Shown: piece after piece, positions 1,255 through 20,532 of the stretch
Position numbering within the stretch: the first letter of the stretch is position 1
Layout: each line of letters begins with the position of its first letter
Assembly: GCA_017986195.1 (NCBI GenBank)
Contig: JAGNWC010000001.1
Location: 1-49,951, forward strand
DNA from: Hydromonas sp.
GTDB lineage: Bacteria > Pseudomonadota > Gammaproteobacteria > Burkholderiales > Burkholderiaceae
Reading direction: 5' to 3'
Length of the DNA: 49,951 bases
The notes under the pieces: model-generated
What the model saw: only the letters and a program-made list of their open reading frames with translations
Database searches by the model: none
Told to the model about the DNA's origin: nothing
Position numbers and translations under genes: made by a program

Positions 1255-1917
1255 ATGAAAAAAACCCTCTTAATTTCGACACTCGTCGGTGTATTGGCAC
1301 TCCAAGGTTGTGCGACAGGCACAATGACTCAACCCCAAGGCGCAGGTAAATCAACTGCCATTGGCGCAGTGATTGGCGCGGCGGCTGGCGCGATTATCGG
1401 TAGCACCACGGGCAGCGATCACGTTGGGCGCGATGCTGCTATTGGGGCAGCCGTCGGTGGGCTCGGTGGTTATGTGTGGAACAACCAAATGGCCAAACAA
1501 CAAGCGGCTTTGGAACAAGCCACCGCAGGCACAGGCATTGACGTTCAACGCACAGCGGACAACCGCATTAAAATGGACATCCCAGCAGACGCGGGCTTTG
1601 CCACCAATCAAGCGACCATTCAGCCCCGCCTGCAATCGGTATTGAACACCGTTGCCAGCACATTGAATGCCAATAACACCACTGTGGTGTATGTGGTCGG
1701 TCACACCGACAATACAGGCTCTGATGCCATCAACTACCCACTGTCACAACGTCGTGCCGAATCAACGCGCAACTACTTGGTGAATAGAGGGGTTGCCAGC
1801 AGTCGCTTTACCACCGAAGGCAAAGGCTCAACCCAACCGATTGCCACCAATGCTACGGTGGCAGGTCGTGCTGAAAATCGCCGTGTTGAGGTGTTTGTGG
1901 GTCAACCTGCCTCTTGA
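1255..1917 (+). CDS. OmpA-family lipoprotein with glycine-zipper region
   Basis: Lipobox signal peptide (LALQGC). Gly-zipper stretch (AIGAVIGAAAGAIIG...GAAVGGLGG). C-terminal OmpA/peptidoglycan-binding domain (GHTDNTGS..NYPLSQRRAESTRNYL..NRRVEV). AAGGA RBS upstream. Confidence 0.8.
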   Translation: MKKTLLISTLVGVLALQGCATGTMTQPQGAGKSTAIGAVIGAAAGAIIGSTTGSDHVGRDAAIGAAVGGLGGYVWNNQMAKQQAALEQATAGTGIDVQRTADNRIKMDIPADAGFATNQATIQPRLQSVLNTVASTLNANNTTVVYVVGHTDNTGSDAINYPLSQRRAESTRNYLVNRGVASSRFTTEGKGSTQPIATNATVAGRAENRRVEVFVGQPAS

Positions 1918-2198: not shown

Positions 2199-2525
2199 TT
2201 AAAACGGCAATTTCATGCCCGCAGGTAGATTCATGCCTGATGTGAGTTTGCCCATATGCGCTGCGCTGGCTTCTTCGGCACGGCGCACCGCATCATTGAC
2301 TGCAGCCGCGACCAAATCCTCTATCATGTCCTTGTCGTCTTCCATCAGTGACGGATCGATTTGCACGCGTTTCACGCCAAATTTGCAGTTCATGGTCACT
2401 TTGACCAAGCCCGCGCCCGACTGCCCTTCAACCTCGATATTGACCAGTTCGTCTTGGGCTTTTTTCATGTCTTCTTGCATTTTTTGCGCTTGCTTCATTA
2501 AGCCCGCTAATTGGTTTTTCATCAT
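2199..2525 (-). CDS. ybaB: Nucleoid-associated protein YbaB/EbfC
   Basis: 108 aa with the typical YbaB sequence ([27 protein letters not shown]...[30 protein letters not shown]). Lies directly downstream of dnaX, as in most bacteria. Confidence 0.9.
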
Positions 2526-2558: not shown

Positions 2559-3131
2559 TTATTCGGGTTGTATCGAATTGGGCAAAATCATACCATCAAA
2601 CTCGCGCACAATGGCGGCAATGGTGGGGTGTTGTTGCACTGCTTGCTTGGCACTGGCGAGCGAATCGTCGCGTTGCTTGGCACTGGTTTTTTGCGGACTG
2701 TTGCGCACTTGTCCCAATTCGGCAATCTCGACTTTGAGCGTTGGCATCGGCTGTCCCAGCTCGGTAAAATAGGTTTTTAATGCCGAACGCAGACCGCTTA
2801 AAGCATTGTCATCGGTTGCTAAACTGAGTTTCTCACAACGCAACACCATGGCTGTCTCTGTCAACAACACCAATTCGCTTTGACGCGCCAGTTGTCCCGC
2901 AAATGCTTTCAAACCCATGTGCACCACCATATCGGCCCATGTTTGCGCAAGCGCAGCGGCATCACTCGCATCCTCAGACCCTGATGACGTGAGGGATGCT
3001 GTTGGCAGTTCGGATGCTGCGCGTTGTGAGGGTGTGTGTGGCGCAACTTCTGCGGGCTTTATCGACACAGGCATCATCGGTGACGCAAATGTGTGCTGTG
3101 TGGATACAGGCTTGGAAGTTGCGCTGATTAC
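2559..3131 (-). CDS. dnaX: DNA polymerase III tau-specific C-terminal part, in the -1 frame relative to the dnaX N-terminal ORF
   Basis: The frame of ORF 2559..3077 stays open upstream to nt 3131, reading VISATSKPVSTQHTFASP before MMPVS. The sequence resembles the tau C-terminal domain (W.DMV..MGLKAFAGQLARQSELV....AMVLRCEKL......L..L...F.ELG....L.VEI). It has no RBS or plausible independent start. It is joined to 3128..4240 only by a -1 shift at 3131..3137. Confidence 0.7.
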   Translation of the reverse strand, partial: VISATSKPVSTQHTFASPMMPVSIKPAEVAPHTPSQRAASELPTASLTSSGSEDASDAAALAQTWADMVVHMGLKAFAGQLARQSELVLLTETAMVLRCEKLSLATDDNALSGLRSALKTYFTELGQPMPTLKVEIAELGQVRNSPQKTSAKQRDDSLASAKQAVQQHPTIAAIVREFDGMILPNSIQPE

Positions 3132-3151
3132 TTTTTTGCGCTGTCTGCCTT
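3041..3151 (-). promoter_or_regulatory. dnaX: Candidate programmed -1 ribosomal frameshift cassette in dnaX (SD-like element, slippery heptamer, adjacent stop, stem-loop)
   Basis: Read on the minus strand: UAAGG (3152..3148), a 10-nt spacer, A-AAA-AAG (3137..3131), UAA stop (3130..3128), a 6-nt gap from heptamer to stem, then GCGCAACUUC (3124..3115). That stem arm pairs perfectly with GAAGUUGCGC (3050..3041). The 64-nt interior contains a further ACACAG/CUGUGU helix. The spacings equal those of the E. coli dnaX frameshift signal. Confidence 0.6.
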
Positions 3152-4240
3152 AAAGTGTTCGGGGGCAAAAGCCAACAGCCGCAACAGCATCATGGTAAAG
3201 CCTGCCTGCGCATCGGGTGCCAAATGCAGTTGCTCACGCGCTTGGGTGACGATGCTGTAGTACAACTGCACCTCGTCCGCGCCCATTTCAGGTGCGAGTT
3301 CGCGCACGATTTTTGCCAAGGTAAAGTCATCGGGCACGGCATCGGGCACAATTTGCGCCAAACTGATGCGGTACAGCACCTGCGCCAATTCAATCGTTGC
3401 GTCTAAAAACGAGGTCGATTGGCTCGCCATTTGCTCGGCAATATTCACCAGAGCCTTGCCATCGCGCGCAATCAAGGCACGCAATATCGCTTCGATTTGC
3501 GCACTGTCGGTCGCGCCGAGCATATCTTTGACCGCACTGGTGCTGACGTTGGATGCCGAGAACGCAATCGCCTGATCGGTCAGTGACAGCGCGTCGCGCA
3601 TACTGCCGCGCGCGCCTTTGGCAATCAAATGCAGAGCTTCTTCTTCAAAATCAACCTGTTCTGCCGTAAGGATTTTTGACAAATGTGTGACGATGTCTGC
3701 GGGCGGCATTTGCTTTAAATTAAATTGCAAGCAGCGCGAGAGCACCGTGGGCAAGACTTTTTGTGGGTCGGTCGTTGCGAGGATGAACAGCACATGTGCG
3801 GGTGGCTCTTCAAGCGTTTTGAGCAGCGCATTAAACGCATTTTGCGAGAGCATGTGCACCTCGTCAATCAGATACACTTTGTAACGCCCCGCAGTCGGCA
3901 TGTATTCGGCATTCTCAATCAGTTGGCGCATGTCGCCCACGCCCGTATTGCTGGCCGCATCGATTTCGAGCAAGTCGACAAACCGCCCAGCGTCGATTTC
4001 TTGACAGGTGGCACAGACACCACAAGGCGTTGCTGAAATGCCCTGCTCACAGTTTAAAGACTTTGCCAAAATCCGCGCAATCGTGGTTTTACCCACGCCA
4101 CGCGTGCCTGTAAACAGATACGCATGATGCAGACGTTGTTCGGTCAGCGCATGGCTCAGAGCTTTGACCACGTGGTCTTGACCGACCAGTTCGGTAAAGT
4201 TTTTGGGTCGCCATTTACGCGCAAGGACTTGTGAACTCAT
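3128..4240 (-). CDS. dnaX: DNA polymerase III subunit gamma-like product (zero-frame product of dnaX, domains I-III)
   Basis: 370 aa with the clamp-loader AAA+ Walker A (GTRGVGKTT), the Zn module (CEQGISATPCGVCATCQEI), DEVHML and SRC motifs. Ends ...LLAFAPEHFKADSAKK-TAA, with the stop immediately after the A-AAA-AAG heptamer. Confidence 0.9.
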   Translation of the reverse strand: MSSQVLARKWRPKNFTELVGQDHVVKALSHALTEQRLHHAYLFTGTRGVGKTTIARILAKSLNCEQGISATPCGVCATCQEIDAGRFVDLLEIDAASNTGVGDMRQLIENAEYMPTAGRYKVYLIDEVHMLSQNAFNALLKTLEEPPAHVLFILATTDPQKVLPTVLSRCLQFNLKQMPPADIVTHLSKILTAEQVDFEEEALHLIAKGARGSMRDALSLTDQAIAFSASNVSTSAVKDMLGATDSAQIEAILRALIARDGKALVNIAEQMASQSTSFLDATIELAQVLYRISLAQIVPDAVPDDFTLAKIVRELAPEMGADEVQLYYSIVTQAREQLHLAPDAQAGFTMMLLRLLAFAPEHFKADSAKK

Positions 4241-4267: not shown

Positions 4268-4300
4268 GAAAATGGGCGATGGACATCATCCATCGCCCAT
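4268..4300 (-). terminator. Hairpin terminator between ffs and dnaX
   Basis: 12-bp perfect stem atgggcgatgga/tccatcgcccat with a 5-nt loop, followed on the minus strand by UUUCU. The A-run on the other side makes it potentially bidirectional. Confidence 0.6.
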
Positions 4301-4311
4301 TTGGGAATTTA

Positions 4312-4408
4312 GAGGCGAGCCTGACTTCGGCACTTGAGTAAAATAGCTGTGGCTGCTTGCTTCCGCACCTGACCCGATTCACCATCGCCCAATGCGAAGG
4401 GACCCGCC
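4312..4408 (-). ncRNA. ffs: Signal recognition particle RNA (4.5S, small bacterial SRP RNA)
   Basis: The minus strand reads GGGUCAGGUGCGGAAGCAAGCAGCC, matching the conserved SRP domain IV core (E. coli CCAGGUCAGGUCCGGAAGGAAGCAGCC with a GGAA tetraloop). The 5' GGCGGG.. and 3' ..CUCGCC ends can pair. ffs upstream of dnaX is a common arrangement. Ends are approximate (+/-5 nt). Confidence 0.8.
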
Positions 4409-4424: not shown

Positions 4425-4513
4425 CGGCAGAAAAATCCGCACCTCAATAAACTTTGAAAATATGTTCTGTGCTACATTGTTTTTTATCAAAAACCAGCCG
4501 CCCAAACAACCCC

Positions 4514-5164
4514 ATGTATTTCAAAAACACCCCCATCAAATTAATCAACTCGCGCACGCACGGCGCAGGTACCGAACTGTTCATCGTCGAGGGCGATTCT
4601 GCTGCGAGCACGGTGGCGCATTTGCGTGACGGGGTGTTTCAAGCGGTTTTACCCATGCAGGGCAAACCTTTGAACGCCATCAAAGCCAGACCTGAAAAAG
4701 TAGCAAACTATCCTTTGTTTAAAGCGGTGATGGACAGTTTGGGCGCGGGATTTGGTACCGATTTTGACATCGACAAACTGCAATTTGAACGTGTGGTGTT
4801 GCTGTTTGACCCCGATGCCGATGGCATCCACAGCGGCGCGTTGATGTTGCTGTTTTTTTATCAATTCATGCGACCGCTACTCGAAGCAGGCAAAATCGAA
4901 ATGGTGCACGCGCCGTGGATGCAAGTATCCATCAAAGGTGAGTCGCCAATGTACGCGTTCTCAGAACCACAAAGCACCTCGCTCATCAGCCAACTGCGCG
5001 CACAAGACCACGAGCCCATCACTGTGCGCTATCGCGGCTTGGCGGGGATAGACCATGCGATTTTAACCAAAACTTGCATTGAGCCATCCACCCGCAATGC
5101 GCGGGTAATGACCGTGGCGGATGCACTGATGGCGATGGAGGTTTTTGGTGGCAGCGCGGCGTAA
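4514..5164 (+). CDS. Stand-alone Toprim-domain protein resembling the C-terminal half of GyrB/ParE (no GHKL ATPase or transducer domain)
   Basis: ELFIVEGDSAA (catalytic Glu motif), LPMQGKPLNA (PLxGKxLN), LLFDPDADGIHSGALMLLFFYQFM (DxDxD plus the following helix) and the tail RYRGLAGI...M are collinear with GyrB ~415-end. The start is uncertain: ATG 4514 is preferred over 4454, and neither has a clear RBS. Confidence 0.7.
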   Translation: MYFKNTPIKLINSRTHGAGTELFIVEGDSAASTVAHLRDGVFQAVLPMQGKPLNAIKARPEKVANYPLFKAVMDSLGAGFGTDFDIDKLQFERVVLLFDPDADGIHSGALMLLFFYQFMRPLLEAGKIEMVHAPWMQVSIKGESPMYAFSEPQSTSLISQLRAQDHEPITVRYRGLAGIDHAILTKTCIEPSTRNARVMTVADALMAMEVFGGSAA

Positions 5165-19857: not shown

Positions 19858-20532
19858 ATGTTCAATCATTTAACCAGCGCGAAAATCCGCAAATACTTGG
19901 TCACAGGGGTATTGGTATGGGTTCCTGTGATCATTACGATTTCGGTCATTGCTTGGGGTATGGGCATTTTGCAGGGAATTTTCACCAGCGTGGTGGATGC
20001 GGTGGTGGCATTTTTACCCGCACCTTTGGCTGCCGATGTGGAGAAAGTTAAGGACATACCAGGTTTGGGGGTGATTTTGGTGGTCTTGGTCTTGTTTACC
20101 ACAGGTATGATGGCGGCGAATTTTTTGGGACAATGGTTTTTGCGCGTCATGGATTCATTGCTCTCAAACATACCAATCATCAAAACCGTATATAACAGCG
20201 TCAAACAAGTCTCTGACACCCTGTTTTCCAGCAGCGGGCAAGCTTTTCGCAAGGCACTTTTGGTACAATACCCGCGCGCGGGCGTGTGGACAGTGGCGTT
20301 TCAGACGGGCACACCGTCTGGGCAAATCGCAAAAAATATTCCGCATGATTGCGTCAGCGTGTATGTCCCCACAACCCCCAATCCGACCTCGGGTTTTTTT
20401 CTGATTATGGCAAAAACCGATGTGGTTGAACTGAATATGAGCGTGGATGAAGCACTCAAATACATTATTTCTATGGGCGTGGTTGACCTTGAAACGCTTG
20501 AAAAAAAGCCCTTAAAACAATCAAAACCTTAA
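19858..20532 (+). CDS. DUF502-family inner-membrane protein
   Basis: Two N-terminal TM helices and the conserved [14 protein letters not shown] and YPR.G.W...F motifs. The FmdB-DUF502-aspS order recurs in Betaproteobacteria. Confidence 0.7.

Follow-up and report, generated by a model that had tools for sequence, protein, structure and literature searches.

A probable programmed -1 frameshift required for tau in the split dnaX gene of the Hydromonas clade

Through its C-terminus, the dnaX product tau tethers the clamp loader (domains I-III) to the alpha subunit of DNA polymerase III (Pol III) and to DnaB, and it is essential in the bacteria studied. How can tau be made from a dnaX gene whose reading frame stops directly after domain III? 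This question is raised by a 49,951-nucleotide stretch of a Hydromonas sp. genome (contig JAGNWC010000001.1 of assembly GCA_017986195.1; the whole stretch is called the window below), in which the coding sequences for dnaX domains I-III and for the tau-specific C-terminus are divided between two neighbouring open reading frames (ORFs) in a -1 relation. As judged from sequence comparisons, the dnaX gene of this clade is probably expressed via a conserved programmed -1 ribosomal frameshift. Tau would depend on this shift, and translation without it would by default give a gamma-like protein.

The dnaX locus lies on the minus strand. Its first ORF (ORF1, 4240..3128), which defines the zero frame, encodes a gamma-like clamp-loader subunit of 370 amino acids (aa) with domains I-III, and the Pfam families DNA_pol3_delta2, DNAX_ATPase_lid and DNA_pol3_gamma3 span residues 20-359. 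The 3' end of ORF1 reads ...GCA AAA AAG TAA and contains the slippery heptamer A_AAA_AAG (3137..3131), which stands in the shifty X_XXY_YYZ frame, its first A being the third base of a codon. The zero-frame stop UAA (3130..3128), which ends the gamma-like product, follows directly 3' of the heptamer. The -1 frame stays open between 3149 and 2559; after the heptamer, all-frame translation continues it as GUA AUC AGC..., that is, VISATSKPVSTQHTFASPMMPV.... This -1 frame extension (3131..2559) comprises 190 codons and a stop, and its translation, Pfam matches and alignment identify it as a tau linker followed by the Pol III alpha-binding domain V. Fused to the zero frame, it gives a protein of 560 aa with the predicted junction peptide ...ADSAKKVISATSK.... 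The last -1-frame stop upstream is the UAA inside UUUAAGG (3152..3150), so that a productive shift is confined to seven codons, the heptamer included. An earlier reading of the same letters (the original prediction) had already proposed this layout, and a re-reading of the minus strand found its coordinates, its ORF1 end and its hand translation of 3131..3078 to be right.

That the downstream frame encodes a genuine tau C-terminus is indicated by several lines of evidence. A fusion of about 560 aa with a C-terminus resembling tau domain V had been anticipated, and the C-terminal ~125 residues do align, over their whole length, with the extreme end of 50 Burkholderiales DnaX proteins that are uninterrupted (E down to 1.6e-12). 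The Pfam family DNA_pol3_tau_5 is matched at residues 428-556 with 28.3 bits, slightly under the cutoff of 28.8, and is precomputed on most homologues of the -1 ORF. Across 13 lineages, not one stop interrupts the 2712 codons of the -1 frame, whereas the two other frames contain 138 and 166. The ratio of non-synonymous to synonymous substitution rates (dN/dS) is 0.06-0.26 for the final 126 codons, at a dS of 0.4-2.8. Depending on the lineage, the -1 frame has its first ATG anywhere between codon 6 and codon 253, and an SD-like (Shine-Dalgarno-like) sequence upstream of this ATG was found in none of the lineages checked. In the window, ATG ATG occurs 18 codons past the shift site. The -1 ORF is thus under purifying selection and has no conserved start of its own. 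Gene callers divide the dnaX gene of the clade into a DnaX of 370 aa and a C-terminal ORF that is called on its own, just as had been expected of automatic annotation, and the latter is named in just two of 19 database clusters, both times as 'hypothetical protein'.

The distribution of the split gene was investigated by scanning ORF1 against one genome per GTDB species, which gave 80 Burkholderiales-type loci. The 66 loci that are readable to the dnaX stop all carry an uninterrupted gene of 506-1006 aa, and no in-frame heptamer occurs at the matching position in any of these 66 genes, the nearest of which are just 61-65% identical to the window. The sole close match in the species scan is L001, an uncultured Hydromonas metagenome-assembled genome (MAG) that is 91% identical and whose dnaX is likewise split. 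Its junction reads GUA AAA AAG UAG UCA GCGCAACUUC, and the partner sequence GAAGUUGCGC further downstream is intact; these two sequences are the arms of a stem described below, and the region between them is diverged and 9 nt shorter in L001. A protein search with the -1 ORF returned 19 clusters of 53-97% identity, all of them called as stand-alone proteins of 123-252 aa. Together, the species scan, the contigs of the protein matches and a metagenome scan provided 15 distinct lineages, represented by independent assemblies from NCBI, ENA, JGI and Logan. The metagenome scan gave five more split loci, and among the close relatives there was no intermediate, E. coli-like arrangement.

In this set, the in-frame A_AAA_AAG is invariant (15/15 lineages), with exactly A6 and then G, and UAA or UAG follows it directly in 14 of the 15. 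The exception is L088, in which the stop lies three codons further (AAG CCC AGC GCG UAA). Identity in the gamma part amounts to 90-98% for 11 related lineages and to 83.5% for L088. The -1 frame is open over 185-263 codons in all lineages except L100 (111 codons), and the overlap between the upstream -1-frame stop and the zero-frame stop measures 3-19 codons across the lineages. The comparison of relatives that had been suggested with the original prediction therefore finds the heptamer, the stop and the downstream stem conserved in 15 lineages, with one compensatory change in the stem.

This stem begins 6 nt after the heptamer. Its 5' arm, GCGCAACUUC (3124..3115, minus strand), is recovered in both folds and alignment, and its four-fold degenerate third positions in the -1 frame do not vary. 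The 3' arm, GAAGUUGCGC (3050..3041, minus strand), stands out as conserved within a linker that has diverged elsewhere. The arms are perfectly complementary over 10 bp and 64 nt apart. The insert that separates them (3114..3051, minus strand) varies in length and sequence, measuring 45-64 nt across the lineages (alignments A1 and A2), and in each lineage it folds an internal hairpin, although these hairpins are non-homologous and differ in sequence. A perfect GC-rich stem of 10 bp had been predicted, and it is present and complementary. It is a long-range stem around a structured insert and differs in this from the compact hairpin of E. coli.

Folding, as had also been proposed, returns the 10-bp stem in both the minimum free energy (MFE) prediction and RNAalifold. 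The MFE fold of the window sequence includes it at -33.6 kcal/mol (z = -5.09), that of L001 includes it as 11 bp at -30.3 kcal/mol (z = -3.81), and it recurs in 10 of the 11 further lineages that were folded, L093, where it is partial, being the exception. In the 13-sequence alignment A2, pairing reaches 97.2% in the stem, compared with 30-40% after a displacement of the partner by 1-3 columns, and the same ten pairs are the sole consensus structure of RNAalifold. Changes within the stem are few: L088 has one compensatory U-A to C-G exchange and three one-sided, compatible G.U changes, and L099 has a G-C to G.U change. Further support comes from the synonymous sites. In the tau ORF, 28 four-fold degenerate columns encode an amino acid that does not vary, and only 6 of the 28 have an invariant third base as well (11 lineages). 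Five of these six fall inside the cassette, one at the stop-codon overlap and two in each arm, as opposed to 1 of 22 columns outside it (hypergeometric p ~3.5e-4). The stem is under constraint at the RNA level.

Two of the lineages show peculiarities of their own. Within the clade, L088 (a Logan SRR23967301 contig, 2453-2579) has diverged the most; the zero-frame stop falls inside its 5' stem arm (GCG UAA), its stem may extend by an outer helix, and it could help to tell the essential elements from the dispensable ones. L100 (OBID01001057.1) has the same junction as the window, and its -1 frame after position 1495 ends at 111 codons. Its best segment is only 72% identical, which may point to a chimeric assembly or to a disrupted variant.

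Upstream of the heptamer, at a distance of exactly 10 nt, lies the SD-like element UAAGG (3152..3148, minus strand). Its AGG is invariant in 13 lineages and located 10-12 nt before the heptamer (alignment A2, columns 12-14), and L088 has a full AAGGAG despite a differing local protein sequence. UAAGG is a putative frameshift stimulator. Three E. coli stimulators had been predicted at matching spacings. The spacings of 10 nt and 6 nt agree with this prediction, whereas the third element, the zero-frame stop, is not a stimulator of E. coli dnaX.

Short motifs of this kind also arise by chance. AAAAAAG is found 18 times in the window as against 17.5 expected, which is no enrichment, and the window contains 61 inverted repeats with a 10-nt exact seed within 90 nt. 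The significance of the cassette would come from its position and its conservation across 15 lineages, not from the motifs alone. The heptamers at coding sites of the window, eight in number and two of them in the shifty frame, are too few to speak for or against an avoidance of the shifty frame. A second shifty-frame A_AAA_AAG is located at 20502..20508 (plus strand), eight codons before the stop of the ORF 19858..20532; the -1 frame adds only 23 codons there and does not join the next gene, and this site is probably incidental. Lysine codons in the 35 long ORFs of the window are mostly AAA (565, versus 101 AAG). This bias is compatible with an E. coli-like decoding mainly by tRNA-Lys(UUU); it bears on the shiftiness of the heptamer but is no proof of such decoding. 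The only tRNA gene in the window is that of tRNA-Phe.

The favoured mechanism can be outlined as follows. Ribosomes that stay in frame would read GCA AAA AAG and terminate at the adjacent UAA, releasing a gamma-like protein of 370 aa whose end lies directly behind domain III. A fraction of the ribosomes would slip back by one base, continue with GUA AUC AGC... and translate 190 more codons, resulting in a 560-aa tau with the Pol III alpha-binding domain V. Two routes for the slip are conceivable. Either tRNA-Lys would occupy both the P and the A site on A_AAA_AAG, or, in a 'shifty stop' event, the peptidyl-tRNA-Lys alone would re-pair from AAG to AAA during slow decoding of the stop in the A site. 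UAAGG would pair with 16S rRNA and the 10-bp stem, 6 nt downstream, would be positioned at the mRNA entrance during decoding of the heptamer, both probably stimulating the slip as in E. coli dnaX. The stop three codons away in L088 implies that adjacency of the stop is not strictly required. That the ribosome rather than RNA polymerase makes the shift is inferred, as are its efficiency and what the SD-like element and the adjacent stop contribute to it. The central claim of the original prediction, a gamma-like zero frame and a -1 shift needed for tau, is supported by the conservation of the cassette, the pairing of the stem, the frozen synonymous sites, the selection on the -1 ORF and its missing start, the collinearity of its C-terminus with uninterrupted tau proteins and the spacings shared with E. 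coli K-12.

A more far-reaching version of this mechanism may also be envisaged, although we consider it unlikely. It holds that the cassette is an obligatory, high-efficiency -1 signal that evolved independently and has a distinct architecture, combining a long-range GC-based stem, a freely evolving insert and a shifty stop. Tau would then be made by recoding alone, and its ratio to gamma, and through it the assembly of the replisome, would be set by and respond to the translational status of the cell, such as the supply of Lys-tRNA, the efficiency of termination and the ribosome traffic, thereby coupling replication to translation.

The dnaX cassettes of E. coli, Salmonella, Neisseria and Vibrio resemble that of the window in having the same heptamer in the same frame and two products that have domains I-III in common. 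A direct reading of E. coli K-12 gives AGGGAG, 10 nt, A AAA AAG, 6 nt (AGUGAA) and the stem, and both the 10-nt and the 6-nt spacing are identical in the window. The E. coli dnaX signal has two stimulators, the SD sequence and the hairpin (PMC3711429). The products are assigned the other way round. In E. coli, tau is read from the zero frame and gamma results from a -1 frame that closes after one codon, and RefSeq lists tau as a plain coding sequence and gamma as a joined one; in the window, this logic is reversed because the stop inside the 6-nt spacer falls in the other frame. The shift site is also placed differently, at codon 370 and directly after domain III in the window, as compared with about codon 430 in E. 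coli. Finally, the stem sequence is unrelated to that of E. coli, and it closes an insert of 45-64 nt across the clade instead of the small E. coli loop. Thermus thermophilus dnaX shares with the window an A-run that generates a pair of tau and gamma. There, tau is the product of a single ORF and gamma arises from slipped transcripts on A9, whereas the window has A6 and tau is the recoded product.

Whether the reversed arrangement had been catalogued was left undecided in the original prediction. Two-ORF dnaX genes of this kind are already in the literature (Antonov et al. 2013, Nucleic Acids Research (NAR) 41:6514, PMC3711429; Atkins et al. 2016, NAR 44:7007, PMC5009743). Antonov et al. described 17 such genes from 12 genera, of which 12 have runs of A7-A10, in Chlorobi, Bacteroidetes and Verrucomicrobia, and these were read mainly as cases of transcriptional realignment (PMC3711429). 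Atkins et al. cite an unpublished candidate from Chlorobium phaeobacteroides with E. coli-like stimulators (PMC5009743). The window agrees with the published genes in its adjacent, -1-related ORFs, its gamma-like zero frame and its need for a frame change to reach tau. It differs from the named poly-A examples in being betaproteobacterial (Hydromonas clade, Burkholderiaceae), in having six A within a canonical heptamer, and in its conserved long-range stem and SD-like element at E. coli spacings. A literature search turned up no paper on Hydromonas that also deals with dnaX or frameshifting. The cassette is a new betaproteobacterial and clade-wide case of an already published reversed arrangement and does not constitute a new category.

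Several observations weigh against a programmed ribosomal frameshift at this site. The SD-like element comprises just 3-5 nt in most lineages and overlaps conserved Lys/Gln-Ala codons, and selection on the protein may account for its conservation. A tRNA-Lys(CUU), if present in the organism, would lower the shiftiness of the heptamer. The covariation support for the stem is thin, with one compensatory event in a single lineage, and a shuffle control for covariation was not significant (113/500); the case for the stem consequently rests mostly on conservation, including that of the synonymous sites. A stem that encloses an insert of 45-64 nt is unlike the characterised, compact dnaX hairpin. 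An Rfam search of 2900..3300 at E <= 10 gave no match to RF00382, which we take to be the family of the dnaX frameshift element, and returned two chance-level matches to unrelated families. Lastly, a single extra A in the transcript would yield an identical tau frame and protein.

The last of these points leads to programmed transcriptional realignment, in which RNA polymerase would stutter on the A6 run and add one A, so that standard translation would give tau. Such an explanation has precedent, since this mechanism is shown for Thermus, the published reversed dnaX genes are mostly read in this way (PMC3711429) and dnaX orthologues are known to use either mechanism (PMC3711429, PMC5009743). 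However, the run in the window consists of six A only, and productive slippage has been put at about eight or more (PMC3711429) or at nine (PMC5009743). Moreover, in all 15 lineages the run is exactly A6 with a G behind it, which is the canonical ribosomal heptamer in the shifty frame, and both the conserved stem at 6 nt and the SD-like element at 10 nt belong to the features of a ribosomal frameshift. Realignment is therefore considered improbable at this locus. In another scenario, the gene is truly split and the C-terminal ORF is translated alone, by internal initiation or by termination-reinitiation, with a free domain V acting in trans. This would agree with the separate protein of 123-252 aa in the gene calls and could make use of the ATG pair of the window. 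It is difficult to reconcile with the scattered first ATG and the missing upstream SD-like sequence, and with a -1 frame that is kept open from the heptamer in every lineage and closed only 3-19 codons upstream of it. From what is established about the replisome, a detached domain V could not tether the clamp loader, and the split-gene model gives no account of the conserved heptamer and stem. We regard it as very improbable; independent translation of the C-terminal ORF was rejected as unlikely for want of a conserved start or SD sequence.

There is also the possibility that the interruption is an artefact or a sign of decay, that is, a homopolymer error concealing a true A7 or a recent pseudogene. 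One added A does restore a continuous ORF, and homopolymer indels are common in assemblies; the original prediction had named the T6 run at 3132..3137 as a place to check for one. A sequencing error was ruled out by the identical A6 and nearby stop in 15 lineages, which come from independent samples and assemblers and show synonymous divergence up to saturation. The stop codon varies between UAA and UAG and yet is always present. The dN/dS of the downstream ORF (0.06-0.26) likewise ruled out a pseudogene, and the chance of either is practically negligible.

The surroundings of dnaX show some further features. A small signal recognition particle (SRP) RNA (Rfam RF00169, 71.4 bits) is encoded directly upstream on the same strand (4311..4408, minus strand). 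The terminator of this RNA is probably a perfect hairpin (14 bp, 5-nt loop) and its U-run at 4270..4302, about 30 nt before the dnaX start. At 4454..5164 (plus strand), there is a gene for a stand-alone protein of ~216-236 aa that corresponds to the C-terminal Toprim-plus-tail part of GyrB/ParE without the ATPase domain; a phmmer search against PDB matches it to C-terminal fragments of GyrB at E = 2.5e-36. This gene lies divergently upstream of dnaX in most loci for which flanks were recovered (L081-L087, L092 and L093), but not in L088, and its product could be a gyrase partner or a decoy. On the other side, dnaX is followed in the window by ybaB (2199..2525, minus strand) and then by an OmpA-like gene (1255..1917, plus strand), not by recR. 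In L081/L082 (Burkholderiaceae MAG GCA_018261955.1, 3071-3664), a DUF2238 gene is inserted between dnaX and ybaB.

If the dnaX gene of the Hydromonas clade is indeed expressed through a programmed -1 ribosomal frameshift, tau is at present missing from the annotations of the clade, and its dnaX gene calls need to be corrected. The locus would add a proteobacterial and probably ribosomal example to the reversed dnaX genes, and it would support the view that, near an efficiency of ~50%, a small change suffices to swap which of the two products is recoded. Its stem with a large variable insert would offer a counterpart for comparison with the much-studied E. coli dnaX hairpin. Above all, the clade would provide a natural case of an essential protein that depends on frameshifting.

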